From Patescibacteria group bacterium (GTDB lineage: Bacteria > Patescibacteriota > Patescibacteriia > UBA10025 > JBIOWE01): a stretch of 64,000 nucleotides of DNA. Below the pieces are notes generated by a model. The model did not search any database. It was not told the origin of the DNA and was given only the letters and a program-made list of their open reading frames with translations. The translations under genes and the position numbers were made by a program. Positions 2,585 to 64,000 of this stretch are shown piece after piece (position 1 is the first letter of the stretch; each line of letters opens with the position of its first letter). The DNA is taken from positions 151,707 to 215,706 of the forward strand of contig JBIOWE010000006.1 in the NCBI GenBank assembly GCA_044868145.1. The letters are read 5' to 3'.

Positions 2585-3427
2585 ATGTTGGCACAATATA
2601 AACAACTCATCCGTAAAGCGTTCAAAGGCCAATACGCCATTGGCGCGTTTAATACGTCGGACCTGGAAATAACGCAGGCGATTGTTGAAGCTGGGGAAGG
2701 ATTGCGCGCGCCTGTGATTGTGAACACGAGCGAGAAGGCAATTGATTACGCAGGCCATAAAACATTAAGTCAAATAATTTTATTGATAGGGGAGCAAGCA
2801 GCCATTCCCGTTGTGTTGAATCTTGACCACGGACGGAGCATGTCGCTCGTGAAGTCGAGCCTGGCCCTCGGTTATACTGGTGTGATGTTCGACGGCTCGA
2901 GATGGCCTTTTTCTCGTAATGTGCTCATGACCAAAAAAGCTGTTCAATTGGCGCACCGCAAGGGCGTGCCGTGTGAAGGCGAACTGGGGAGTATCGCGGG
3001 TAAAGAGGATTATGTTCGAGGCAAAGGCGCATTGACGGATCCGAGCCTGGCGAAAGAGTTTGTGCGCAAAACCCGCGTTGATCTGCTTGCAGTCGCCGTG
3101 GGTACAGCCCATGGCTCGCTCCCGGGCGAGCATATTGATATTCCCCGGCTGCGGGAAATCCATCTCGCTATACCAACAACGCCCCTGGTGCTCCATGGCG
3201 CTTCCGGAACGCCAGCGAATCAAATACGGCAGGCGATTAAGTTCGGGGTTGTGAAAGTTAATATCGATACCGATCTTCGGCTCGCATTTTCGTCTGCGCT
3301 CTATAAAACTTTGCGCGATAAAACATTATATGACCCCCGTCAAATCTTGACCCCCAGCCGCATTGCAGTCAAAAAAGCGGTGACAAAAAAAATCCGTTTA
3401 TTTGGCAGTAGCCGAAAGGCTTCTTAG
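2585..3427 (+). CDS. fba: Class II fructose-bisphosphate aldolase
   Basis: AIGAFN, LDHG and HGASG motifs of class II FBA/tagatose-bisphosphate aldolase. Confidence 0.85.
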   Translation: MLAQYKQLIRKAFKGQYAIGAFNTSDLEITQAIVEAGEGLRAPVIVNTSEKAIDYAGHKTLSQIILLIGEQAAIPVVLNLDHGRSMSLVKSSLALGYTGVMFDGSRWPFSRNVLMTKKAVQLAHRKGVPCEGELGSIAGKEDYVRGKGALTDPSLAKEFVRKTRVDLLAVAVGTAHGSLPGEHIDIPRLREIHLAIPTTPLVLHGASGTPANQIRQAIKFGVVKVNIDTDLRLAFSSALYKTLRDKTLYDPRQILTPSRIAVKKAVTKKIRLFGSSRKAS

Positions 3428-3440
3428 CTTATGGCGTATT

Positions 3441-3487
3441 GCGTATAGCTTATAGTATGATGAGAGGTGTACCTATAAGCTATACGC
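3441..3487. promoter_or_regulatory. Perfect 15-bp inverted repeat (GCGTATAGCTTATAG / CTATAAGCTATACGC) with 17-nt spacer, 10 nt upstream of the kinase ATG; candidate operator
   Basis: Read directly. The arms are exact reverse complements. TATAGT lies inside the spacer. Confidence 0.45.
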
Positions 3488-3497
3488 TATTAACTAT

Positions 3498-4496
3498 ATG
3501 CCGACATTTGATGTGATTACCATCGGGAGTGCGACGCGAGACGTCTATCTGTTTAGCAAAAAATTTCACGTGATCAAGGACCGACGCATGCCGACCGGGC
3601 AGGCGGAGAGCTTCGCGTTTGGGACAAAAATCGAATTGGACCGCGTGTTGCTTGAGGTTGGCGGCGGCGCCACAAATACGGCGTTCACGCTGGCGCGTCA
3701 GGGTTTCCGCGTGGGCAGCGTCGTCAGGGTCGGTCGCGACCAGGCAGGGACGGAAATCGTCGATTTTTTAAAGCGACACCATATAACCCCGTTTGTGACG
3801 GTTGATCCGAAGCGTCCAACAGGATTTTCCGTTGTTTTTCTGACGAAATCCGGCGAACGCACAATTCTTGTGTATCGAGGAGCGAGCGACGCTATGCAGA
3901 GCGCCAACGTATCCTGGCAAGCTTTGGGCAAAACGAAATGGGTCTATATGACCTCGGTAAGCGGAAACGTTCCACTTATGAAACGGGTCGTCGGATTTTC
4001 GCGCAAGCGAGGTATCCGCGTTGCCGTCAATTTCGGGAAGCGCGAACTCGCCTTCGGCTTCAAGCGCTTATTGCCAGTTATTCAGAATGCGGACGTAACT
4101 TTTTTGAATCGTGAAGAAGCATCCAAGCTTTTTAGCGTACGCCCAAGCGACACGCGAGCACTCATTGCAAAGTTGAAAACCATGCGCTACGGCATGTTTG
4201 TTGTAACAGAAGGTAAGCGCGGTTCGATGGCGTTTGACCAATCGCGTCTTTTTACGGTTCGCGTAAAGCAAGTGAAGGTAAAAGATACCACGGGCGCTGG
4301 AGATGCGTTTGGCTCAGGATTTCTCGCAGGCTACATGCGAACCAAGAATATTCGACACGCGCTTACGTTTGGGTCCTTAAACGCTGCGGCAGACGTCCAG
4401 GCGATCGGCGCGAAGCATGGCGCGCTTGGCAGGGTGCGCGCTATTTCGAGCGATCCTTCTATCAAGATTACTATTGAAAAAATCCCAGGCACCTGA
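3498..4496 (+). CDS. PfkB-family carbohydrate/ribokinase-like kinase
   Basis: C-terminal DTTGAGDAF anion-hole motif and GG dipeptide N-terminal motif. Confidence 0.8.
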   Translation: MPTFDVITIGSATRDVYLFSKKFHVIKDRRMPTGQAESFAFGTKIELDRVLLEVGGGATNTAFTLARQGFRVGSVVRVGRDQAGTEIVDFLKRHHITPFVTVDPKRPTGFSVVFLTKSGERTILVYRGASDAMQSANVSWQALGKTKWVYMTSVSGNVPLMKRVVGFSRKRGIRVAVNFGKRELAFGFKRLLPVIQNADVTFLNREEASKLFSVRPSDTRALIAKLKTMRYGMFVVTEGKRGSMAFDQSRLFTVRVKQVKVKDTTGAGDAFGSGFLAGYMRTKNIRHALTFGSLNAAADVQAIGAKHGALGRVRAISSDPSIKITIEKIPGT

Positions 4497-4529: not shown

Positions 4530-6062
4530 ATGAACACGAAGAGCAGTTTTTTAGTCTCAAAATTGAATTTTTGGTCACGTCTCTCTGACCATACAAAGTA
4601 CCGGATACTCGAAATGATTCCGGGTTTGCTCGTTTGGACCACGTTTTTTTTCGCGCTTTTCTTTTCATTCATTAAGCCTCTTTGGGTAATCTATTTTATC
4701 CTCGTCTTCGATTTACTGTGGCTCATCCGCATACTCTACGTCACAATTTACATTATTGTTTCATACAAACGCTTCCGACAAGCATTGAAAGTCAATTGGC
4801 TAGAAAAGTTGCGGGCAACGCCCCGATGGGGGGAGTTTGTTCATACAATTTTTATCCCAACGTACAAAGAACCGATCGAGGTGCTCGACACAACCTTTCA
4901 GGCGCTGATACATTCGGACTACCCGCTTGAGAAATTTATCGTCATCCTCGCCGGAGAAGAGCGCGATCATGAGCAGTTCGTCAAGAATGCGCGGTTGATC
5001 CAAGAACGCTACGGATCGAAATTTGGGTATTTGATGGTTACGCTGCACCCTAAGGATATTGTCGGTCAGATTGCGGGTAAGGGGTCCAATCTGGCATTCG
5101 CAGGCAGGCAAGCGCAAGAATACATTGACAGCAAAGGAATTCCATACGAAAACGTGATCGTTTCTTCTTTTGATGCGGATACTTGCGTCCACCCGCAATA
5201 TTTCAGCTACTTGACCTATAAATATTTGACCTGTGAAAATCCAACGCGGACGAGTTTCCAGCCTCTAGCACTCTTTAACAATAATATTTGGCAAGCGCCG
5301 GCGTTCAGCCGCGTCGTTTCCTACAGCACGACGTTTTGGTTGCTTTCCGAACAGGTGCGGCCTGAGCGGATGTTCACATTCTCTTCCCATAGCATGAGTT
5401 TTAAGGCGCTTGTTGAAGTCGGCTTTTGGCAGGATGACATCGTGACCGAGGACTCTCGTATTGTTATCCAGTGTTTGATTCATTACGATGGCGCGTATAA
5501 GGTTGAACCTTTATATATCCCGTTATCTATGGATACGGTGCACGGCAAGAACCTTTGGGATACGATTAAAAATCAATATCGCCAGGTGCGGCGGTGGGCG
5601 TACGGCGTGGAGAATTTTCCTTATATGGCATGGAATTTTATCGGAAACAAACGCATGCCGTTTCTGGTGAAATGGCGCTATATGTGGAATCAATTGGAAG
5701 GCGTCTATTCCTGGGCGACTGCGCCGATTCTTATTACGATTCTTGGCCGCTTGCCCGTGTGGATCGCGAACCAGCGGGAGGAAGTTGCCGCAGCTGCTCA
5801 AAACGCGCCAGAGATACTTCAGGTGATTCTGACCATTTCCATGATCGGTATTTTTATTTCCGCCATGCTCGCAACATCGCTCTTACCCCCACGGCCGCAA
5901 TCATTCAAGCCCTGGAAACTCCTGTTTATGGTCGTGCAGTGGATTTTTTTGCCGGTCACGCTCATTTTTTTCGGTTCCATTCCGGCGATTGAAGCGCAAA
6001 CGCGGCTCATGCTCGGCAAATATCTGGGGTTCCATGTGACGGAAAAGGTAAGGAAAAGTTAA
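4530..6062 (+). CDS. Processive GT2 beta-glycosyltransferase (cellulose-synthase-like), polytopic membrane protein
   Basis: DAD, TED and QVRRW (QxxRW) motifs. N- and C-terminal transmembrane helices. Confidence 0.7.
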   Translation: MNTKSSFLVSKLNFWSRLSDHTKYRILEMIPGLLVWTTFFFALFFSFIKPLWVIYFILVFDLLWLIRILYVTIYIIVSYKRFRQALKVNWLEKLRATPRWGEFVHTIFIPTYKEPIEVLDTTFQALIHSDYPLEKFIVILAGEERDHEQFVKNARLIQERYGSKFGYLMVTLHPKDIVGQIAGKGSNLAFAGRQAQEYIDSKGIPYENVIVSSFDADTCVHPQYFSYLTYKYLTCENPTRTSFQPLALFNNNIWQAPAFSRVVSYSTTFWLLSEQVRPERMFTFSSHSMSFKALVEVGFWQDDIVTEDSRIVIQCLIHYDGAYKVEPLYIPLSMDTVHGKNLWDTIKNQYRQVRRWAYGVENFPYMAWNFIGNKRMPFLVKWRYMWNQLEGVYSWATAPILITILGRLPVWIANQREEVAAAAQNAPEILQVILTISMIGIFISAMLATSLLPPRPQSFKPWKLLFMVVQWIFLPVTLIFFGSIPAIEAQTRLMLGKYLGFHVTEKVRKS

Positions 6063-10474: not shown

Positions 10475-11833
10475 TTATTGTACTATATCGATTGGATCTC
10501 CTTCCGGATGCAGGAAGAGGGCAGCATCTGTTGTCCGAATCAGGTTGTCCCACTTATACCCAAGCGCGTTAAACGCTTGTATCGAGGCGATGCCGCGACG
10601 TTGGCCGTTGGAAATCACATAGACGCCACGCATGCTCGGGGAAGTTACTATTTCTCCATCCTTGAACTTTATGGGATCACCCAGCTTATATTGGTTGATA
10701 GTCGTTTGTTCGACGACAACAGGTTTTCTGTTCGGAAAGCGGGACCGTAGAATTTCTCTGGACCAAATTGACTGGCGCACCCCGTTTTCTACGTACGAAA
10801 TCCCTCCGGTTTCAAGTGATTGTAGCAGGACCCCAGTGGGGTAAATACTTTGCATGTTGATGTTCGGCCCATTACTATAGACCGCAAGCTCTCCGTCGCT
10901 TGCGACGATGATTTCTTCTGGGTTAAATCCAATTTGCCGAAATACTTCTGGCGATTCAATATATCGTTTTGTGTCCCCATCAATCAGGAACACCCGACCG
11001 GTTGTATTGGAACGGACAAGTGAATAATTCGCGAATTTGATTGGCTGCCCTTCGTCGTACGCATCGATATCGCTTCGTGATACTTGAATGATGCGCGATG
11101 TGTCATATCTCGTAACAAGCGCCGTGCGAGAAAGGAAGGGTCTGCGCTTTCCATTTTGAATGAGGTACACGCCTTGTTCTCCTTGAACTTGCAGGAGCGA
11201 ACCGTCAGGGTAGTTCTTCAAAAACCACGAATTCCACAGCGTCCAAAACACTTCGTTGCCGTGAATATGGGGCGTATACGTGTACAAGTTCACGGTCGCT
11301 TGGTTTTGGATCGTGACGGTGACGTCATCGATAACATACGTACCCCCGACTTTAAAGTACCACTGACCTGCTTGGTCAATGTATTGGCGATTGCGCTTCG
11401 CGGCCCAGTTCACTTGGTTGAAGAATCCTTTGTATTGTTGGATGGCCGGATCATCTTTCGAGCACGAATCGCATACGCCGTAACCCGCTGCCCAGTCGTA
11501 TTGACTTTGGGTTGGCGTGGAATCAGTCACCAGGCTTTGTTCTTTTTGCAATACGACAATGAGCACCTGGGGGTTGATACGATAGTAGTTGCCAGCGTCG
11601 TAAATAACTTGCGCTGCGGTTTTTACGTTGCCCCACGGGTCAGTAATTTTATACGTCGCCAGCGTTCCTGTTTTGCCTTCAAGAAATCGCTGGATATGCG
11701 AAACCGACATGGATGCGTTATTCACCATGTCGAAGTCAGAGATGATATTGCCTGGATTAAACGTTGCCGTAGCGAAAACGGGGAAGGGGAATAGAAGCGA
11801 TGCAACGAATAATGCAATGGCGATTTTCTTCAT
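10475..11833 (-). CDS. Secreted protein with four C-terminal ~50-aa repeats
   Basis: The track ORF runs to 11992. The likely start is the internal M at 11833 (MKKIAIALFVASLLFPFPVFA signal peptide). Repeats have the form GxYLI-NGKRR...G(F/Y)...I...PI. Confidence 0.6.
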   Translation of the reverse strand: MKKIAIALFVASLLFPFPVFATATFNPGNIISDFDMVNNASMSVSHIQRFLEGKTGTLATYKITDPWGNVKTAAQVIYDAGNYYRINPQVLIVVLQKEQSLVTDSTPTQSQYDWAAGYGVCDSCSKDDPAIQQYKGFFNQVNWAAKRNRQYIDQAGQWYFKVGGTYVIDDVTVTIQNQATVNLYTYTPHIHGNEVFWTLWNSWFLKNYPDGSLLQVQGEQGVYLIQNGKRRPFLSRTALVTRYDTSRIIQVSRSDIDAYDEGQPIKFANYSLVRSNTTGRVFLIDGDTKRYIESPEVFRQIGFNPEEIIVASDGELAVYSNGPNINMQSIYPTGVLLQSLETGGISYVENGVRQSIWSREILRSRFPNRKPVVVEQTTINQYKLGDPIKFKDGEIVTSPSMRGVYVISNGQRRGIASIQAFNALGYKWDNLIRTTDAALFLHPEGDPIDIVQ

Positions 11834-11916
11834 AACGTGCAGAATTGTATGATACCATATTTTGGGAGAAATTGGAAGGGCCTTCTTTTTGAACCGCCAA
11901 AAACCAAGCGCAGGCC

Positions 11917-11975
11917 GCTGTGCCTGCGATTGGTGAATCGCATGGTCCAGCGCACCCACAGCGGGGTGCGCTGGA
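11917..11975. repeat. Intergenic repeat element, copy 1 (conserved ends CT(G/C)TGCCTGCGAT(T/A)GGT ... CGCACCCAC(A/G)GCGGGG(T/C)GCGCTGG)
   Basis: Near-identical 17-nt and 24-nt ends are shared with 21090-21148. Contains a GCGCACCC/GGGTGCGC hairpin. Confidence 0.6.
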
Positions 11976-11983
11976 TGGAAATA

Positions 11984-12009
11984 AAAAAGCACCGTTTTGA
12001 GGCGGTGCT
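11984..12009. terminator. Bidirectional terminator (A-run, GCACCG stem, T-run) downstream of the minus-strand small gene
   Basis: AAAAAAGCACCGttttgaggCGGTGCT. Confidence 0.5.
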
Positions 12010-12048
12010 CCTAGATACTTTAGCCTTGAATTACTTTGTTGGTACCTC

Positions 12049-12237
12049 CTAGTCAGGATAAGTAATGTCTAAGATGCTTCCCGGCACGACTTTGTAAACA
12101 GATTTGAATTCAGGGTCCGCTGATATTTTTTCCGCTAGGAGTTTGTTTCGTAGTCTTTTTTCCGCTTGAGCTATGTTCAGCGAGTCTTCAAAGACAATGT
12201 AAGGTAGAGCCATTACGAAGAAACAATGAGCATGCAT
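12049..12237 (-). CDS. Small hypothetical protein (62 aa)
   Basis: Strong SD (AAGGAGGA, 5 nt before the ATG), its own TTGACA-17-TAAAAT promoter and a downstream terminator. Confidence 0.5.
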   Translation of the reverse strand: MHAHCFFVMALPYIVFEDSLNIAQAEKRLRNKLLAEKISADPEFKSVYKVVPGSILDITYPD

Positions 12238-12258
12238 TTTTCCTCCTTATTTTAGGGT

Positions 12259-12287
12259 ATTTTAGAATAGTGCATTCCTTTTGTCAA
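12259..12287 (-). promoter_or_regulatory. Sigma70-like promoter TTGACA-17-TAAAAT for the 62-aa gene
   Basis: Read on the minus strand. Confidence 0.5.
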
Positions 12288-12294
12288 GACAGCG

Positions 12295-12354
12295 ATGCGG
12301 ATCTCAAGGATCCGCATATACCCTCGGTAGGTCAGGGCCAGGCCCTGACCTACC
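12295..12354. repeat. Two adjacent perfect palindromes (ATGCGGATC-tcaag-GATCCGCAT and GGTAGGTCAGGGCC-a-GGCCCTGACCTACC) in the divergent promoter region
   Basis: Exact reverse-complement arms. Related copy at 32931-32986. Confidence 0.6.
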
Positions 12355-12373
12355 GGCAAGGTTTGAGTTTCTT

Positions 12374-12402
12374 TTGTCAAGACGGCTTTTCCACGATATA
12401 CT
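12374..12402 (+). promoter_or_regulatory. Promoter TTGTCA-17-TATACT, 10 nt upstream of the tagA-like ATG (leaderless)
   Basis: Spacing and hexamers read directly. Confidence 0.5.
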
Positions 12403-12412
12403 GTACGTTGTT

Positions 12413-13159
12413 ATGGCTACAACGATATTGGGTACACGTATTGATACGCTGTCTAAGCAGAATGTTCTCGGGCGCGTTCGCTCTTTTTTAAATAGCAAAG
12501 AGCCGCATTTTATTGTTACCGCAAATCCAGAAATCGTCATGGCCGCGAAGCACAACGATGAATATCGCGCGATTTTAAACAAGGCGGATCTAGTGGTCGC
12601 CGACGGTATCGGTTTGAAATTCGCATCGCAGTACCTCGGCTCACCAATTCCGCAACGGCTTACTGGTGTTGAGCTAGTGTATGAGATTGCCGATATTGCA
12701 GAGGAAGAGAACGCGTCCATCTATTTGCTTGGCGCTGGCCACGGGATTGCGGAGAAAGCCGCTCGCAATTTAACCGAGCGATTTCCCGGTTTGACTATCG
12801 CGGGTTTTGAAAGCGGCCATCGGTTCGGGTGGTGGCGCGTGCCTGATGAGCGCATTGTGCGTCATATCAGAAGAAGCAAGGCCAAAGTTTTGTTTGTCGC
12901 CTTTGGTCATCCCAAGCAAGAAAAGTGGATTTATTACAATCTCCCAAAATTGCCCAACATCCGCATTGCCATGGGCGTGGGCGGCGCCTTTGATTACATC
13001 GCGGGCAAGGTGAAGCGCGCCCCAGTATGGATGCAAAAAATGGGACTTGAATGGCTGTATCGCTTGATGCGTGAGCCTTCACGGGGCCCACGTATCGTCA
13101 CGGCAGTTTTTCGATTCAGCTGGCACGTTTTAAAAAGTAAAAAAGCGCAAAACCAATGA
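12413..13159 (+). CDS. WecB/TagA/CpsF-family glycosyltransferase
   Basis: FIVTANPEIV...ADLVVADGIG motifs. The track start (12281) is an upstream TTG; the ATG at 12413 fits the family N-terminus. Confidence 0.8.
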   Translation: MATTILGTRIDTLSKQNVLGRVRSFLNSKEPHFIVTANPEIVMAAKHNDEYRAILNKADLVVADGIGLKFASQYLGSPIPQRLTGVELVYEIADIAEEENASIYLLGAGHGIAEKAARNLTERFPGLTIAGFESGHRFGWWRVPDERIVRHIRRSKAKVLFVAFGHPKQEKWIYYNLPKLPNIRIAMGVGGAFDYIAGKVKRAPVWMQKMGLEWLYRLMREPSRGPRIVTAVFRFSWHVLKSKKAQNQ

Positions 13160-18238: not shown

Positions 18239-18243
18239 CCGTA

Positions 18244-18339
18244 CCCCACACCATTTTTACAGTTTATGTTTCCTAACCCGTAACAGTTTACCACTTTTAC
18301 TATTTTGTTGTTTGAATGTCCTCTAAAAATGGTGTGGGG
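18244..18339. repeat. Long-range 16-bp perfect inverted repeat (CCCCACACCATTTTTA ... TAAAAATGGTGTGGGG) enclosing about 64 nt
   Basis: Read directly. Sits immediately before a promoter. Confidence 0.55.
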
Positions 18340-18368
18340 TTGACAGCAGTATTGTTATAGTATATACT
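18340..18368 (+). promoter_or_regulatory. Promoter TTGACA-17-TATACT followed by TATATACTA direct repeats
   Basis: Consensus hexamers. AGTATATACTA is repeated twice downstream. Confidence 0.55.
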
Positions 18369-18421
18369 AGGTATATATTAAGTATGAATGAAGTATATAC
18401 TAAGTATTAACGTTTTCTCCT

Positions 18422-18592
18422 ATGTACGACAATCGTTTGCGCAGAAAGGTGTTCCCGATCGGAAAGTACAGTTATGCGCTTACTGTGCCTAAGGATTTAT
18501 TGAAATTACTGGGTTGGCAGCCGGGGGAAGCGCTCGAAGTGGTGCCGGATTTGGGGAAAAAGCGAATTATTGTAAAGCGGTATAAGTTTTAG
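18422..18592 (+). CDS. AbrB/MazE/SpoVT-type (swapped-hairpin) DNA-binding protein, 56 aa; below the ORF-track cutoff
   Basis: MYDNRLRRKVFPIGKYSYALTVPKDLLKLLGWQPGEALEVVPDLGKKRIIVKRYKF matches the AbrB/MazE fold pattern. No SD. Confidence 0.55.
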   Translation: MYDNRLRRKVFPIGKYSYALTVPKDLLKLLGWQPGEALEVVPDLGKKRIIVKRYKF

Positions 18593-18747
18593 GAGACCCT
18601 GAATCAAGTTCAGGGTGACAATTAAAGACGGAATGCTCTTTTGCTGTCATGCTGAACCCTGTCCTGACGAATGTCAGGATTGTTTCAGCATCTCTATAGG
18701 TGAGGTCCCTCGCTCCGTCGCGTTTATATACGCGACTTCGCTCGGGA

Positions 18748-18793
18748 CGAAGGTCAAGTTTTCTTCATAAAGACTTGACCTTCGGTTTTTCTT
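18748..18793 (+). terminator. Rho-independent terminator (11-bp stem CGAAGGTCAAG / CTTGACCTTCG plus T-run) overlapping the next -35
   Basis: Read directly. Confidence 0.6.
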
Positions 18794-18803
18794 CGGCTAT
18801 ACT
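18775..18803 (+). promoter_or_regulatory. Promoter TTGACC-17-TATACT, 8 nt before the ATG at 18812
   Basis: Hexamers and spacing read directly. Confidence 0.5.
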
Positions 18804-18811
18804 AAAGAAGT

Positions 18812-19063
18812 ATGGAAGCCGAGGTTGTGGATATATTCGCTTCGTTTACGAAAGAAGGGCCAAGGCCTCAATTGATACGGCATAAGGGGCATAGTTATCG
18901 TATTAACCGCGTGAATTTGCATTATACGGCCAGGGAAGGGGGCAGGGTGGTCCATTATTTCGCGTGTTCCGACGATGCCAATTATTTCCAGTTGCGATTC
19001 GATCCGGTGGAATTACGCTGGCAATTGATGCAAATCGAGGATTACACGGAGCCAACTTCATGA
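18812..19063 (+). CDS. Hypothetical 83-aa protein, translationally coupled (ATGA) to dinB
   Basis: Its stop overlaps the dinB ATG at 19060. No recognisable motif. Confidence 0.45.
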   Translation: MEAEVVDIFASFTKEGPRPQLIRHKGHSYRINRVNLHYTAREGGRVVHYFACSDDANYFQLRFDPVELRWQLMQIEDYTEPTS

Positions 19064-21028: not shown

Positions 21029-21089
21029 GTCCTTCACGAACAAAAAAACCCAGAGCAGGCGGCTCTGCCCCGTATAAAATTTTACGGGG

Positions 21090-21148
21090 CTCTGCCTGCG
21101 ATAGGTTTTCCTGGTTCACGCCCATCGCACCCACGGCGGGGCGCGCTG
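21090..21148. repeat. Intergenic repeat element, copy 2 (see 11917-11975)
   Basis: Conserved 17-nt and 24-nt ends, preceded by two short hairpins. Confidence 0.6.
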
Positions 21149-21156
21149 GGTCTTCA

Positions 21157-32815: not shown

Positions 32816-32930
32816 AGGAGTATAGCTCTTTATGTCTTTATTGGTGAGTGTAAGGGATATTATACACAGTAACAACTTTATTATATATAGGGCTTTATTT
32901 GTTGTAAAGCCCTGTTCCCTAGCTCTTTGA

Positions 32931-32986
32931 GGGTAGCCTCGATCCTCAGATCGAGGCGGTGCGGATCTGAGGATCCGCACCTACCC
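32931..32986. repeat. Composite palindromic element (CCTCGATC-ctca-GATCGAGG, GGTGCGGATC-tgag-GATCCGCACC, flanked by GGGTAG/CTACCC), related to 12295-12354
   Basis: Exact reverse-complement arms. Shares the GCGGATCT..GATCCGC core and GGTAG/CTACC ends. Confidence 0.55.
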
Positions 32987-33002: not shown

Positions 33003-33437
33003 CTAAAGCGCTTTCAGGACGAATAAGAGGATCGCAATATACATTATTTGTGTCGTTAGGCCCAGCGTCCACCCAACGCGCACCTGAATCGCGGCGTGGA
33101 AGGCTAGGAAGCGCCCGAGTCCCCTTCTGACAGCGGGAAAGATGCCGAAGATGGATATAACGTCCGGTAGGATGGCGAACGTAACGCCGATGAGCAGGTT
33201 TACCCAGTGCTCGGGGTACGAATAAAGCAATGCAAAGAATACGGCAATGCTTGAAAGCAGGTCCGGCCACATGTTCAGGAATTCCTTTGGCTCGGCTTTT
33301 TTCGGCGCGTCAAAGTCCTTATGCGGTACCAGGTCAAGCAAAAAGTGCGACGCTAGAGAAACGACGGCGACCAACGCAGGGTTTCCGATTTTGACACCGG
33401 CTACGGCGCCGGTCAACATGTGGGCAAGTAAAATCAT
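33003..33437 (-). CDS. Small polytopic membrane protein, possibly DUF457/YdjM-like metal-dependent hydrolase; paralog 1
   Basis: Four predicted helices and an HF(L/I)LD(L/F)(V/I)PH motif. 40-45% identical to the next gene. Confidence 0.45.
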   Translation of the reverse strand: MILLAHMLTGAVAGVKIGNPALVAVVSLASHFLLDLVPHKDFDAPKKAEPKEFLNMWPDLLSSIAVFFALLYSYPEHWVNLLIGVTFAILPDVISIFGIFPAVRRGLGRFLAFHAAIQVRVGWTLGLTTQIMYIAILLFVLKAL

Positions 33438-33524
33438 TCCAAAATTAAAGATTAAAAATTAAATATAAAAAATAAAGTAAAGGAATTTTCCGCATTTTTT
33501 ATTTTTGATCTTTTATTTTTACTT

Positions 33525-33956: not shown

Positions 33957-34039
33957 GTCAGTAAATTAAAGATTAAAAATTAAATATAAAAATTTGGAAG
34001 AATCACTTCAATATTTTTTATTTTTACCTTTTTATATAG

Positions 34040-34888: not shown

Positions 34889-34925
34889 GTAAGCTACAGT
34901 AAAAATGTGAGGTATAGCCCTTTAC

Positions 34926-35057
34926 TTGACATGTTTTATAGCGTATGTTATGTTTGTTTTGAAAGAAATCCTCTGCACTTTCTTGCTTGTGCTCCGATTC
35001 CAGGATGAGGTTTCTTTTCACAGTCCCCGCGACCATTATATGGGAGCGGGGTTTTTA
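34926..35057 (+). ncRNA. Candidate sRNA unit A (promoter TTGACA-17-TATGTT to CCCCGC hairpin terminator)
   Basis: Promoter hexamers at 34926-34954. Terminator CCCCGCGACC..GCGGGG plus T5 at 35025-35057. Confidence 0.4.
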
Positions 35058-35077
35058 TTGGTAGTTATGGAAAATGG

Positions 35078-35234
35078 TTGACGTCTTTTTCGCAGTCTGG
35101 TACATTGAGTTTGTCCGGAGCTTACCACTCCGCGTCATGCTCTTTCTCAATTCAGGTACTCTCATTTATTCTTTTTATCAAGTCCCTTTGATAGACCCCG
35201 CGACCATTTTACCATTATGGAAGCGGGGTTTTTA
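35078..35234 (+). ncRNA. Candidate sRNA unit B (TTGACG-17-TACATT to terminator)
   Basis: Promoter at 35078-35106. Terminator at 35196-35234. Homologous to unit C in its 5' block and terminator. Confidence 0.4.
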
Positions 35235-35273
35235 TTGCTAGTTTGGAAGTCATGAAATTCTGCATGAAAATGT

Positions 35274-35460
35274 TTGACACCTTTTTTGCAGTTTGTTACC
35301 TTTAGTTTGCCCGGAGCTTAGGCTCTAGACGGCATGTTCTTTCTAAGAGGATCCATTAGAGGATTCTTTATCTGCGAGATCCATGATTATCTGGGTCTTC
35401 GCCTAGTTTGCCAATATCCCCGCAACCATATCTACCATCGTGGAGGCGGGGATTTTTTAG
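35274..35460 (+). ncRNA. Candidate sRNA unit C (TTGACA-18-TACCTT to terminator)
   Basis: Promoter at 35274-35303. Terminator at 35419-35460. Confidence 0.4.
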
Positions 35461-35479
35461 TTATCCACAATGAGCACTT

Positions 35480-35620
35480 TGACAAATTTTTCGTTTGATT
35501 TATAGTATATTCAGCTAGAAGTTAGAGAAGCTCTAAGTCTTTTCTACAGCGTTAGCCGTAAACAACCAAAACGGTTGCCGCGAACACCCTCATTCTTTAA
35601 AGAGTGAGGGTATTTTTTAT
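35480..35620 (+). ncRNA. Candidate sRNA unit D (TTGACA-16-TATAGT to ACCCTCA hairpin terminator)
   Basis: Promoter at 35480-35507. Terminator at 35586-35620. No ATG in the transcript. Confidence 0.4.
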
Positions 35621-35750
35621 CCCCACACCAACTTTAGGAGACTTCTACCCACCTTCAGGTGAGGGTTTCTGACCTTTAGGTCAGGAAGACCGGGCTAAAG
35701 CCCTGAACACCCTCGGCTCAAGCCGGGTAGAAAAGAAGAAAAGTCGGGAT

Positions 35751-60812: not shown

Positions 60813-60827
60813 ATTTTGTGTTTGCTC

Positions 60828-63800
60828 ATGGCTGTACGTCGTCGAAACAGAATAAATAAGAAAAGAAAAAAGACCAACGCAATGAAGGGGCGATTTCGCC
60901 TTCTTTTTGTTTTATCTATTGTTTGCATTGGTTTATTTTCCATGGGTATGGTCTTGGCTGCTGGGAATACTACCAACGTTACGGCTCAACCGACGTCGTG
61001 CACCGGCTGGCAAAACGCTAGCAAAGCGGAAGCAATTGATTTGCTTGGCTCGTCAGATCTTGGTAGTTTTTCCGGCCAAAACTCTTCGTTTTTCTATAAC
61101 TCCCCCACTCCTGCTGATGCGCTAAGCGCGCCCTCGAATATTCTTGATTGCGCATCTTTTACAGTAACCGATTCTTTGCCAGCACGGTCAACGATCACGC
61201 GGGCAGCCGTTTCTTTTTCCTTTGCAGCGAAGTCGTACCCGGAGAATGAGGATGTGGTGAGCTTTGCGTATTCATTGGATGGAACAAATTGGACGACGCT
61301 CGACTCATTTGCACTCACTGGTGATACAAGTAATGCCATCCACGAAGGTTATCGGGAATATCCCGTGACCGGCATCAGACCTGAAACGCTAGCGCAGCTT
61401 CGCGTGCGTGTGACCTATTTCGCGACGGAACCGACGCATGAGTCCGTAAGCTTTCTTGATAGCGTTCAATTACAGGTATCCTATGAAACGGCAAAAGGTC
61501 AGAAGCCTTTGGCATTACCCAATGACGTAGCTGTATTTACAAAAAAAGATTTCAAGCAGTCCGAGCAGCCATCTTTGGACGTTGAAGTTGAGCACCGTTC
61601 TCTGTTTGGATTTCTTGGCGTTGACCCGACTGTTCGCGCCGTGCACTCGATCCGTGTGGTCGATCCACATGGTGTTGAACGGGAAGGTATCGTGACCGAG
61701 CAACGGCATGATGAAGGCAGGAAAACTTTTGAGCAATATTCCCTCGATCCCGCAAACTTCACTTCACCAGGAAAGTACGAAGTGATTATTTCCATTGAGC
61801 AAGATGGACAAACCGAGCAGGTGCAAAAGGAATTCTCTTGGGGCGTGCTTGTCATGAACACGATGAAGTCGGTGTACCGTCCGGGCGAGACGGCGCATTT
61901 CGGCATGGGCGTGCTCGATCCGTCAGGCCACACCATCTGCGATGCGCAGTTAGAATTGCGTATTACTGATCCAAAGGGTCGTACAGCTCATCTCACAACG
62001 GCGAAAAGCCAAATTCGCTACTCGCAAGAATGCGGTCCCGATAACGTTACGAATTTGCCTGATTATTCAGCCGAATACGGGGTGGAGGGCGCTGGGGATT
62101 ATGCGCTTGTGCTAACCGCGACCACAGGCAGCGGCACGTATACGATTACTGACACGCTCTTTGTACGAGAGAGCATCCCTTTCGATATTATAAGAATTGG
62201 GCCGACGCGTATTTTTCCAAAAGCGAACTACGAAATGTTCCTTGAGATTGTACCGACGTATGATTACAAGGGAACAGTCGAAGAATTCGTACCTTCATCG
62301 CTCAGTCTGATTCGCATCGACCAAGCAGGGACGAGTTTTGAAGTTGATAAAAACACGACAGGCATTCGCTGGAATGTGGATTGGAAAGCCGGACTAGCAT
62401 ACACGTTGTCATACCAATTTGACCCTCCTGACGTGAGTCCGGATTTGCACGTCCTTGGTCCGGCAAAGGTCGGATCATTTCAAGAATATCGCCAGTGGCA
62501 AATCGCCTCGGACTCAACTGGTTCTGGGGCGCCGACCCGGCAATGGATGACGGGTTTTGAAAACAATACGACGACAGCTGATATCGAGTACACCGCCAAC
62601 GTCGGTTCGCCGACTGTACAAACCACGACCGTTCGTTCTGGAACGTACGCCATGCAAACGAACGTTTCGGCCACGACCGCCGGATTCAGCAACGACTTTG
62701 AGTCAGCTGACGCCGCGACTGGGCACTATTTCCGGGAGTACGTTCGGTTCACCACCTTGCCAAACGCCAACACCTTGATCATGGCTATCCGCGATTCCGG
62801 CGCCACCAACCAAGCCAGCATCCGGTATGACAACACGAATGCTAAGTTTGAGCTGTGGAACGAGGAGGACTCGGCGCAAATCGGTTCGGATTCGACCGGA
62901 ACCATTACCACCGGTACCTGGTACAGGCTGGAAATGTATGTTGACTTCGGAACGGCGGCAACCGGCGATACAATTGTGAAGGCACGTCTTAATGGCACAG
63001 AGTTTGCTGCGGCTACGAACGTCAACTGGGCCAACGGCGTTATGACCATGCAAGGCGGTATTATTACCACCAACGCCACCGCCAATGCGTTTATCGACGA
63101 CGTGGCGATTAACCTCGACTCAACAACCTCGGTCGCCGGCGAAGGCTACCCCGGCGAGGGGAAAATCATTTACCTGCGGCCGAACGGCAACGGGACGAAC
63201 ACGGCCTGGACCGGAGATTCCACCGCGGTTGACGAAGTGACGCCGAACGACGGTACCGATGTCATTAGTTGTTCCGCGAGCGCCCAAGCTGAGGATTATA
63301 CCTTAACCGATGCTACTGCCAACGGGGTCAATGCTCTTGATACCATCAAAGTTCTTCAGACGTATGTACGCGTAGGCAACTCATCATCCGGTTCGTCCCA
63401 CAACTATAGTATTGTCCTGAACCTGAGTGGGACGGCCGATACGGTATCGAACGTAACAATTGCTACTGCTACGACGTGGTTTACTATTGACGATACAAAA
63501 CCGCGAAATCCGACGACCACGATTGCGGCCACGGGCAACGTTTCTCAAGGGCAAGTATCGTATGATAAGCCTGGTACGACGACTGATCCCTGGACGCCGG
63601 CGGACGTTGATAGCGCCCAGGTCAACATCAACACGGGCGACTGTGCGCCGGTGACCAACATCAGCACCGTTTGGGTTGAAGTCGAGTACGTGGCCGCCGA
63701 GGGTGGCCGACTATACTCTTCGGGTTTCGAATTGCAAAGCACGACCGCTGACATGGAATACACCGCTAATGTCGGTTCGCCAACTATCAGCACCAGCACG

Positions 63801-64000
63801 GTCCGTTCTGGCGCGGCCTCGCTACGAGCCAACCCCTCCGCAACGACGGCCGGCATGAGCTACGATTTTCGCTCGGCCGACGATGCTACTGCAACGTTTT
63901 TCCGGGCTTATGTCCGGTTTACCACCTTCCCGAACGCCAACACGTTGATCATGGCCATTCGTGATAATGCGGCCACGAATCAAGCAAGTATTCGTTTTGA
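60828..64000 (+). CDS. Giant secreted/surface protein with repeated concanavalin A-like (LamG-like) modules; runs off the window end (absent from the ORF track)
   Basis: Manual translation shows no in-frame stop from 60828 to 64000. Basic N-terminus then signal/TM (second ATG at 60882: MKGRFRLLFVLSIVCIGLF). A roughly 390-aa module is repeated (TADIEYTANVGSPT...FREYVRFTTLPNANTLIMAIRD near 62570; a second copy near 63750). WYRLEMYVDF...AFIDDVAI resembles the LamG/ConA-like core. Confidence 0.7.
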   Translation, partial: MAVRRRNRINKKRKKTNAMKGRFRLLFVLSIVCIGLFSMGMVLAAGNTTNVTAQPTSCTGWQNASKAEAIDLLGSSDLGSFSGQNSSFFYNSPTPADALSAPSNILDCASFTVTDSLPARSTITRAAVSFSFAAKSYPENEDVVSFAYSLDGTNWTTLDSFALTGDTSNAIHEGYREYPVTGIRPETLAQLRVRVTYFATEPTHESVSFLDSVQLQVSYETAKGQKPLALPNDVAVFTKKDFKQSEQPSLDVEVEHRSLFGFLGVDPTVRAVHSIRVVDPHGVEREGIVTEQRHDEGRKTFEQYSLDPANFTSPGKYEVIISIEQDGQTEQVQKEFSWGVLVMNTMKSVYRPGETAHFGMGVLDPSGHTICDAQLELRITDPKGRTAHLTTAKSQIRYSQECGPDNVTNLPDYSAEYGVEGAGDYALVLTATTGSGTYTITDTLFVRESIPFDIIRIGPTRIFPKANYEMFLEIVPTYDYKGTVEEFVPSSLSLIRIDQAGTSFEVDKNTTGIRWNVDWKAGLAYTLSYQFDPPDVSPDLHVLGPAKVGSFQEYRQWQIASDSTGSGAPTRQWMTGFENNTTTADIEYTANVGSPTVQTTTVRSGTYAMQTNVSATTAGFSNDFESADAATGHYFREYVRFTTLPNANTLIMAIRDSGATNQASIRYDNTNAKFELWNEEDSAQIGSDSTGTITTGTWYRLEMYVDFGTAATGDTIVKARLNGTEFAAATNVNWANGVMTMQGGIITTNATANAFIDDVAINLDSTTSVAGEGYPGEGKIIYLRPNGNGTNTAWTGDSTAVDEVTPNDGTDVISCSASAQAEDYTLTDATANGVNALDTIKVLQTYVRVGNSSSGSSHNYSIVLNLSGTADTVSNVTIATATTWFTIDDTKPRNPTTTIAATGNVSQGQVSYDKPGTTTDPWTPADVDSAQVNINTGDCAPVTNISTVWVEVEYVAAEGGRLYSSGFELQSTTADMEYTANVGSPTISTSTVRSGAASLRANPSATTAGMSYDFRSADDATATFFRAYVRFTTFPNANTLIMAIRDNAATNQASIRF

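Follow-up and report, generated by a model that had tools for sequence, protein, structure and literature searches.

GTAG-tagged, REP-like hairpins between the genes of a Patescibacteria group bacterium

We analysed a 64,000-nt stretch of contig JBIOWE010000006.1 from a Patescibacteria group bacterium (hereafter the window; all within-window counts cover its 64 kb) and describe a family of tagged DNA hairpins that occupies two of its intergenic sites. Site 1 is the spacer at 12238-12412, between a minus-strand open reading frame (ORF) of 62 aa (12049-12237) and a plus-strand WecG/TagA-family gene (ATG at 12413; Pfam PF03808, 4.5e-60). Two perfect palindromes lie within it, ATGCGGATC-tcaag-GATCCGCAT at 12295-12317 and CGGTAGGTCAGGGCC-a-GGCCCTGACCTACCG at 12325-12355. 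Both had been noticed in a first-pass annotation of the sequence, and the arms of the second, at 15 bp, are one base longer than given there. A direct repeat that supplies the -35 boxes of two divergent promoters, also described at that stage, is present on either side of the palindromes, and a promoter scan recovers both promoters (Table 1). The repeat is exact over 13 nt and reaches 19 nt when two mismatches are allowed; TTTTGTCAA occurs in the window solely as its two copies. The start codon of the WecG/TagA-family gene follows the -10 box by 10 nt and has no Shine-Dalgarno sequence, which agrees with the leaderless start proposed earlier, or nearly so. The 62-aa ORF has AAGGAGG 5 nt ahead of its ATG and a terminator with a T-run at 12012..11985.

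Site 2 (32931-32986) reads GGGTAG[CCTCGATC ctca GATCGAGG]cg[GTGCGGATC tgag GATCCGCAC]CTACCC. This is the related composite palindrome to which the first-pass annotation had pointed, and its ends are GGGTAG and CTACCC. It lies 16 nt past the stop codon of a minus-strand gene (33003-33437). A good xer promoter, TTTACA-17-TATAAT, follows with its -35 box 22 nt downstream of the site, and the xer-like gene itself lies 112 nt downstream; it encodes a conserved Patescibacteria Xer, 70-80% identical across many genomes. The gene content of the window is ordinary for a chromosome, with pentose-phosphate and glycolytic genes, Def/Fmt, XseA, DinB, Dcd, HU, FtsQ, Alr, MreBCD and glycosyltransferases.

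Both sites are built from one kind of unit. In the window, each unit consists of a tag, GGGTA(G/T), a stem of 7-9 bp, an apex, ATC-CTCA-GAT, and the return stem; when the related genomes described below are included, the tag is GGGTA(G/A/T) and the apex stays invariant above a variable stem of the same length. The window holds two loci and five units, four of which carry GTAG at offset 0 and one GTAT. Stems measure 8-9 bp (15 bp when paired feet are included), loops 1, 4 or 5 nt, and whole units 24-31 nt. At site 2, the two units form an inverted pair with the tags outside and a 2-bp CG spacer, and they fold jointly: as single-stranded DNA the site adopts a Y-shaped three-way fold of -26 kcal/mol that is closed by the pairing of GGGTAG with CTACCC. 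At site 1, the tag of U3 faces one of the two tags of U4. The GTAG tag of U4 can be read on both strands, and its single-strand DNA hairpin has an energy of -17.8 kcal/mol (z -7.2). U2 and U3 have one common stem, and the two sites align over 32 co-oriented nucleotides, GCGrTGCGGATCT(c)rAGGATCCGCAnnTACCC, which reach past the palindrome.

Table 1 Tagged hairpin units, repeats and promoters at the two window sites, with the hairpin pairs of two related genomes
Feature	Position	Strand	Description
Direct repeat, left copy	12278..12290	+	CTTTTGTCAAGAC; complement gives the -35 box TTGACA of the 62-aa ORF promoter
Direct repeat, right copy	12371..12383	+	CTTTTGTCAAGAC; gives the -35 box TTGTCA of the tagA-like promoter
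Promoter-like TTGACA-17-TAAAAT	12259..12287	-	11/12 matches; serves the 62-aa ORFan (12049-12237)
Promoter-like TTGTCA-17-TATACT	12374..12402	+	10/12 matches; serves the WecG/TagA-family gene
U1	32931..32957	+	GGGTAG + CCTCGATC-CTCA-GATCGAGG; left half of the site 2 inverted dimer
U2	32958..32986	-	GGGTAG + GTGCGGATC-CTCA-GATCCGCAC; right half of the site 2 dimer
U3	12295..12323	-	Degenerate tag GGGTAT (12323..12318) + ATGCGGATC-CTTGA-GATCCGCAT; perfect 9-bp stem, 5-nt loop
U4	12325..12355		'Double-foot' C-GGTAG-GTCAGGGCC-a-GGCCCTGAC-CTACC-G; 15-bp perfect arms
Pair in L096			[TTTGATC tgag GATCAAA]aCTACCC-aagaaa-GGGTAA[ACGAAATC ctca GATTTCGT]
Pair in L094			[CTCTGATC tgag GATCAGAG]CTACCC ... 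GGGTAA[ACGAAATC ctca GATTTCGT]; partial extra arms

The core that the two sites had been said to have in common, GCGGATC followed by GATCCGC, is found at these two loci only: with a spacing of 3-6 nt it occurs twice in the window, against 0.00 expected. Perfect arms of at least 12 bp are present at 3 loci and in none of 40 shuffles, and GTAG stands directly 5' of a perfect hairpin of at least 8 bp in 4 cases, against 0.3 expected from dinucleotide shuffles. Folding gives z-scores of -7.1 (site 1) and -6.0 (site 2), with -6 to -8 overall. As a 4-mer 5' of hairpins, GTAG is enriched about 9-fold in the lineage of the window. A scan for GTAG plus hairpin over 614 kb of unrelated loci returned 6 matches, half of which belong to a repetitive extragenic palindrome (REP) family, GTAG-AGACGCCAT-tt-ATGGCGTCT, of a Planctomycetales metagenome-assembled genome and serve as a positive control. 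Both window sites are extragenic, site 1 lying between the starts 12237 and 12413 and site 2 between the stop at 33003 and the xer start at 32818.

We then compared the site 1 boundary with that of related genomes. The closest match to the TagA of the window among 5.8 billion proteins is 61% identical, and the best in the GTDB representative set is 52% identical. In the relatives, the genes run in the order LigB-like, a 452-aa secreted protein and an AmmeMemo radical-SAM protein (minus strand), followed by LigT, HD and TagA...DUF2207...XseAB...DinB (plus strand). The window has the 62-aa ORFan at this boundary; the radical-SAM, LigT and HD genes are not there, and no fragment of them survives at 11.8-12.45 kb. 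The hairpin family occurs at the same boundary in three relatives (L094, L096 and L098) whose TagA proteins are 56-58% identical to that of the window and 77-84% identical to one another. In all three, the hairpins sit in the leader of the radical-SAM gene, in L094 and L096 between the -10 box and the ATG, and the L098 copy is decaying. The relatives' Y units carry GTAA, and all hairpin copies in the relatives are intergenic. Allowing at most one mismatch, the 12-mer GATCCTCAGATC is confined to family units across 742 kb and lies 4-5 nt past GGGTAG every time.

An alignment of nine hairpin units shows how the family has changed. The tag, the apex and three apical pairs are invariant in it; MAFFT displaces the tag by one column for units with 9-bp stems. 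Pairing holds in 96% of the stem cells, and both sides have changed in 6 of 9 pairs; doubly changed cells number 28, against 9.0 +/- 2.6 in shuffles, and 0 of 500 shuffles reach 28. The replacement of the lower stems with compensation suggests that base pairing, and not base readout, is their conserved property.

The units also come and go between genomes. L092, from the same clade and with the same promoter, is without the hairpin block of about 60 nt that L096 and L094 carry between conserved flanks, and the L098 boundary copy is degenerate. Further GTAG-tagged inverted dimers with different stems and loops are present in L093 and L098; in the latter there are two additional dimers with tags outside and one clamp-plus-two-hairpins design 15 nt before tagA, and in all 3 loci fall within 9 kb. 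Upstream of xer, relatives with 77-79% Xer identity lack hairpins of this kind, and the hairpin position is therefore not fixed.

Together, these observations suggest that the palindromes are a GTAG-tagged family of the REP or REPIN (REP doublet forming hairpin) kind, probably read by a Y1 HUH transposase; this is the reading that we favour, with a confidence somewhat above even. We regard it as the best explanation because the features of the family match what has been described for GTAG-tagged, group 3 and 'double-foot' REPs. In published REPs, the stem measures 6-13 bp and the loop is short, and the units of inverted dimers, often heterodimers, are spaced by 1-5 bp (PMC3733652). GTAG REPs (Di Nocera et al. 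2013, PMC3733652) resemble the present family in that GTAG marks one end of a G+C-rich stem-loop of 20-40 nt, and in having subfamilies with alternative complementary stem residues. They, like REPINs and bacterial interspersed mosaic elements (BIMEs), are arranged in inverted dimers with the tags outside or inside, some of them 1-5 bp apart; correspondingly, the tags are outside at site 2 and face each other in the pairs of site 1, L094, L096 and L098. They are also extragenic, mostly downstream of ORFs, with several families per genome (PMC3733652). The present family differs from them in its Patescibacteria host, in an apex, ATC-CTCA-GAT, that stays invariant across genomes only about 56-58% identical in TagA, in an abundance that appears low, and in the GTAA or GTAT tags of some units.

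The group 3 REPs of Stenotrophomonas maltophilia and Marinomonas (REPtron Sm and Mb) are perfect palindromes of 10-16 nt with a 3-4 nt interruption (PMC8266576) and, like the window units, they stand directly or nearly directly 3' of GTAG. Their loop bases help recognition by TnpA_REP, and they differ from the window units in having a known TnpA_REP gene and demonstrated CT/CA cleavage (PMC8266576); no transposase gene was seen in the present case. 'Double-foot' REPs carry GT[AG]G and its complement C[TC]AC at opposite ends of one long palindrome and have been explained as the product of a central deletion in an inverted REP dimer; they go with TnpA_REP subclass 2.4 (PMC6006769). U4 has this form. 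Subclass 2.4 differs from the present case in that it is found mainly in cyanobacteria and Bacteroidetes and that its REPs often lie inside tnpA (PMC6006769), and no tnpA was found in the window.

Likenesses to two further classes of mobile element are partial. IS200/IS605 elements and their miniature derivatives have a subterminal hairpin, a 5' guide tetranucleotide, reading as single-stranded DNA by a Y1 HUH enzyme and no terminal inverted repeats. Unlike them, the window hairpins have no transposase or accessory gene between them, and site 1 is bracketed by a direct repeat of 13-19 nt, whereas IS200/IS605 elements make no target duplication on insertion. Miniature inverted-repeat transposable elements (MITEs) resemble site 1 in being short and non-coding, as is the 80-nt insert here, and in having a flanking direct repeat like a target-site duplication. 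The ends of the site 1 insert (AGCGATGCGG... and ...GGTTTGAGTTT) are not inverted repeats, unlike those of MITEs, and we rejected the MITE reading on this ground despite the direct repeat; a target duplication of 13-19 nt would also be long for known MITE families.

We then propose a model for the REP-like family. When the DNA is single-stranded, the units would fold as hairpins, and tag and apex would be recognized by a hairpin-specific protein, most likely a REP-associated tyrosine transposase (RAYT) of the HUH/Y1 type. We infer both this enzyme and a mode of spread in which it copies or removes units and so makes them unstable residents of intergenic regions. At site 1, one partner of a dimer would have collapsed to the 'double-foot' palindrome U4. 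Site 2 holds a classic REP position. Transcription of the upstream minus-strand gene would run through it at the 3' end, and site 2 may therefore stabilize the mRNA 3' end, or act as a partial barrier before the xer promoter that damps read-through into xer.

The DNA of site 1 is transcribed by neither predicted promoter. Removing 12291-12383 in silico leaves an 83-bp spacer in which one TTGTCAA is the -35 box for both strands. Because this deletion restores a common -35 box, the hairpin block and the duplication look like an insertion that split a promoter. The hairpins could thus have arrived or grown inside an 83-bp back-to-back promoter with a single TTGTCAA, and the 13-19 nt duplication would have given each divergent promoter a -35 box of its own. 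It is tempting to speculate that the perfect 9-bp and 15-bp arms of site 1 extrude as cruciforms in negatively supercoiled DNA between the divergent promoters.

Several results weigh against this reading. No Y1_Tnp or RAYT domain is encoded by the 46 ORFs of the window or appears in the Pfam lists of the related loci, which together cover a small part of any genome; the window itself is 64 kb of a contig of at least 398 kb, and a gene missing from it tells little about the genome. REPs usually lie on either side of a cognate RAYT gene. The family appears sparse, with about one locus per 30 kb in the window, against the dozens to hundreds of dispersed copies typical of REPs in a genome, and some units have GTAA or GTAT in place of GT[AG]G. 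A scan of JGI (Joint Genome Institute) metagenomes for a hairpin core (hpA), TGCGGATCT-N1-2-AGGATCCGCA, gave 32 matches, all of them unrelated hairpins without the flanks; three viral scans gave no matches or chance matches only. In order, orientation and syntenic boundary, site 1 agrees with the pairs of the relatives, a constancy that could reflect long-term retention under selection and not mobility. HUH-type movement yields no target duplication and so does not account for the 13-19 nt direct repeat, and terminal inverted repeats are absent from the insert. REP clusters have, however, been reported to duplicate the DNA beside them. Patescibacteria usually have small genomes. RAYT-bearing genomes are large on average (PMC6006769).

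The same constancy is the starting point for another explanation, in which the hairpin pair is a structural cis-element that selection retains where the AmmeMemoRadiSam cluster meets the tagA operon, and is not a mobile repeat. A hairpin-binding protein, or RNA folding, would read the pair and tune two divergent transcription units. The arrangement hairpin-(C/A)TACCC...GGGTA(G/A)-hairpin recurs in the window, L094, L096 and L098 with its orientation and boundary unchanged, although the stems are entirely different; the covarying stems with their invariant tag and apex, the perfection of the window palindromes and the location of the relatives' pair in the radical-SAM 5' leader, between the -10 box and the ATG, fit this explanation as well. 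We nevertheless find it doubtful. L092 of the same clade is without the pair and the L098 copy is decaying, neither predicted window promoter transcribes the pair, and a second copy sits in an unrelated 3' untranslated region upstream of xer, at a position that the relatives do not conserve. As in repeat families, stems are common to the loci of one genome but are not found across genomes, and in L093 and L098 the same gaps are full of unrelated GTAG hairpins. A bolder version, which we consider unlikely, makes the pair an ancient, positionally fixed element in a genome with few classical regulators: a hairpin- or cruciform-binding protein other than a RAYT would read the GGGTAG foot and the ATC-CTCA-GAT apex and set divergent transcription or local supercoiling, and selection would have kept the pair through complete compensatory turnover of its stems.

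The first-pass annotation had left open whether the palindromes are a REP- or BIME-like repeat family or an operator common to several envelope genes. The former alternative is supported: foot, stem and loop sizes, inverted-dimer and 'double-foot' layouts and extragenic position are those of REPs, and related genomes carry the family too, with stems that covary and with presence/absence polymorphism. The latter is not supported. An operator through which a dimeric transcription factor, binding the duplex, co-regulates the flanking genes would fit palindromes 7-22 nt upstream of three -35 boxes and a GCGGATC...GATCCGC motif repeated at two loci, but the spacing of the half-sites is unequal (5 nt against 4 nt), the conserved parts are asymmetric, namely a one-sided tag and an oriented CTCA loop, and the lower stems have been exchanged wholesale with pairing kept. 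Arms of 15 bp around a 1-nt spacer do not resemble those of operators, the hairpin centres lie at inconsistent distances from the presumed transcription starts (about -54, -69, -73 and -96), the adjacent 62-aa ORFan bears no DNA-binding signature, and the relatives with 77-79% identical Xer have no counterpart upstream of xer. Nor are the neighbours all envelope genes, as xer and the radical-SAM gene illustrate. We therefore judge an operator very unlikely. It is likewise highly improbable that the hairpins are Xer recombination sites (dif-like, inversion or attachment sites) or scars of an integrated element with the two loci as its ends, even though site 2 is close to the xer-like gene, the direct repeat around site 1 resembles an attachment core and the two loci, 20.6 kb apart, have co-oriented homology. 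A tyrosine-recombinase core site has 6-8 bp between arms of about 11 bp, and the central spacers here are 1, 4 and 5 nt; the recombinase is the conserved Patescibacteria Xer, whose relatives have no palindromes beside xer, and there is no GC-skew switch at either site. The interval from 12.3 to 32.9 kb holds housekeeping genes syntenic with the relatives (XseA, DinB, Dcd and HU), and we dropped an integrated element between the sites for this reason. Ordinary intrinsic terminators or unrelated chance palindromes would be in keeping with the 13 window loci that have perfect arms of at least 9 bp, mostly terminator hairpins, and with the location of site 2 after a stop codon. Yet a terminator scan reports nothing at either site, no T-run follows them, site 1 lies between divergent promoters, and the sites are alike beyond the palindromes and have homologues in other genomes; we assign this explanation a negligible likelihood.

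Other candidates were tried and rejected. The window has no over-represented 8-14-mer, as a DNA-uptake sequence would be, and GATC is neither avoided nor enriched (observed/expected 0.97). At site 2, a hammerhead-like three-way junction was considered, but the fold leaves just 2 unpaired bases and Rfam has no match there. Over the whole window, Rfam gave nothing at the gathering score (best sub-threshold match 26 bits against a cut-off of 50), and ARAGORN found no tRNA or tmRNA. The 62-aa ORF was dropped as a regulator: it has zero homologues among 5.8 billion proteins, no Pfam or NCBIfam match, no DNA-binding signature and a poor single-sequence AlphaFold model (pLDDT, the predicted local distance difference test, 57).

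The GTAG-tagged hairpins are thus probably an ordinary type of repeat in an unusual host, a tiny-genome Patescibacteria lineage, and not the operator of a regulator. REPs and RAYT transposases are known mainly from larger genomes, chiefly of Proteobacteria, and our literature search found no paper tying REPs or RAYTs to Patescibacteria. If the assignment is true, the host range of GTAG hairpins extends to genome-reduced, host-dependent bacteria, which raises the question of how they persist in such hosts. The family also poses a compact recognition problem, with an invariant foot tag and apex on either side of a freely covarying stem, and site 1 displays an 80-nt hairpin insert splitting a common back-to-back promoter with each gene keeping a -35 box. 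For annotation, such palindromes should be treated with caution and not be read as operators.

Further observations concern the genes around the two sites. With its 11/12 promoter, AAGGAGG and terminator (11985-12012), the 62-aa ORF makes up a complete mini transcription unit. The TagA-family gene and the gene for the 452-aa secreted protein both start close to their promoters, with the ATG 10-15 nt past the -10 box and no Shine-Dalgarno sequence (12397-12415 and 11833-11875), and their leaders are alike (gtacgttgttATG and gcacgttATG), which suggests nearly leaderless translation of both. In relatives, arrays of minus-strand mini-units lie beside the AmmeMemo radical-SAM gene (L094 1460-2840, L092 900-1300 and L098 5200-6600); each mini-unit comprises TTGACA/TATAAT, a Shine-Dalgarno sequence, a very small ORF and a terminator hairpin rich in G+C, and the arrays may encode small peptides. 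Near site 2, the -10 box and leader start of xer, TATAATATCCCTTACACTCA (32850-32885, minus strand), are kept in L101 and L103 as TATAATATCTCTTACGCTCAG and TATAATAACTCTTACACTCAG, with Xer 77-79% identical. Such conservation is unusual for a leader and may mark an autoregulatory or Xer-binding site.

The window contains other repeats. An untagged family of hairpin pairs is represented at 11903-11975 by ACCAaGCGCAGGC-CGCTGT-GCCTGCGaTTGGT and TCCAGCGCACCC-acagcg-GGGTGCGCTGGA, inverted copies of one unit that are two compensatory G-C to C-G swaps apart and have an identical loop. The composite is found again, in the same orientation, at 21047-21151 between dcd and an exonuclease gene, where hairpin 1 has a nested hairpin in its loop and hairpin 2 is degenerate (25/30 identical). 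An exact A+T-rich repeat of 30 nt, AAATTAAAGATTAAAAATTAAATATAAAAA, stands at 33442-33471 and 33963-33992, each copy upstream of one of two tandem paralogous genes for membrane proteins of 143 and 144 aa that have no Pfam match. An imperfect inverted repeat (3427-3501; 29-nt arms 79% complementary, 17-nt spacer) separates the class II aldolase and PfkB-kinase genes. Within a large ORF that runs off the window end (60816-64000), a 225-nt segment is repeated at 62571-62795 and 63741-63965 with 72% identity, indicating a probable repeated protein domain.

Two long gaps have no called gene. The 862-nt gap between ftsQ and alr (34889-35750) has no Rfam or tRNA match and contains promoter-like sequence and a tandem repeat module (35039-35124 and 35216-35320; 93% identity over 28 nt and 84% over 55 nt). 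Small RNAs or mini-genes may be encoded in this gap. The 725-nt gap at 18239-18963 has hairpins and strong promoter-like sites, among them TTGACA-17-TATACT at 18340-18368, and its hairpin ACCCTGAA-tcaag-TTCAGGGT (18596-18616) recurs in near-identical form upstream of xer in the other genome L101 (about 5330-5370).

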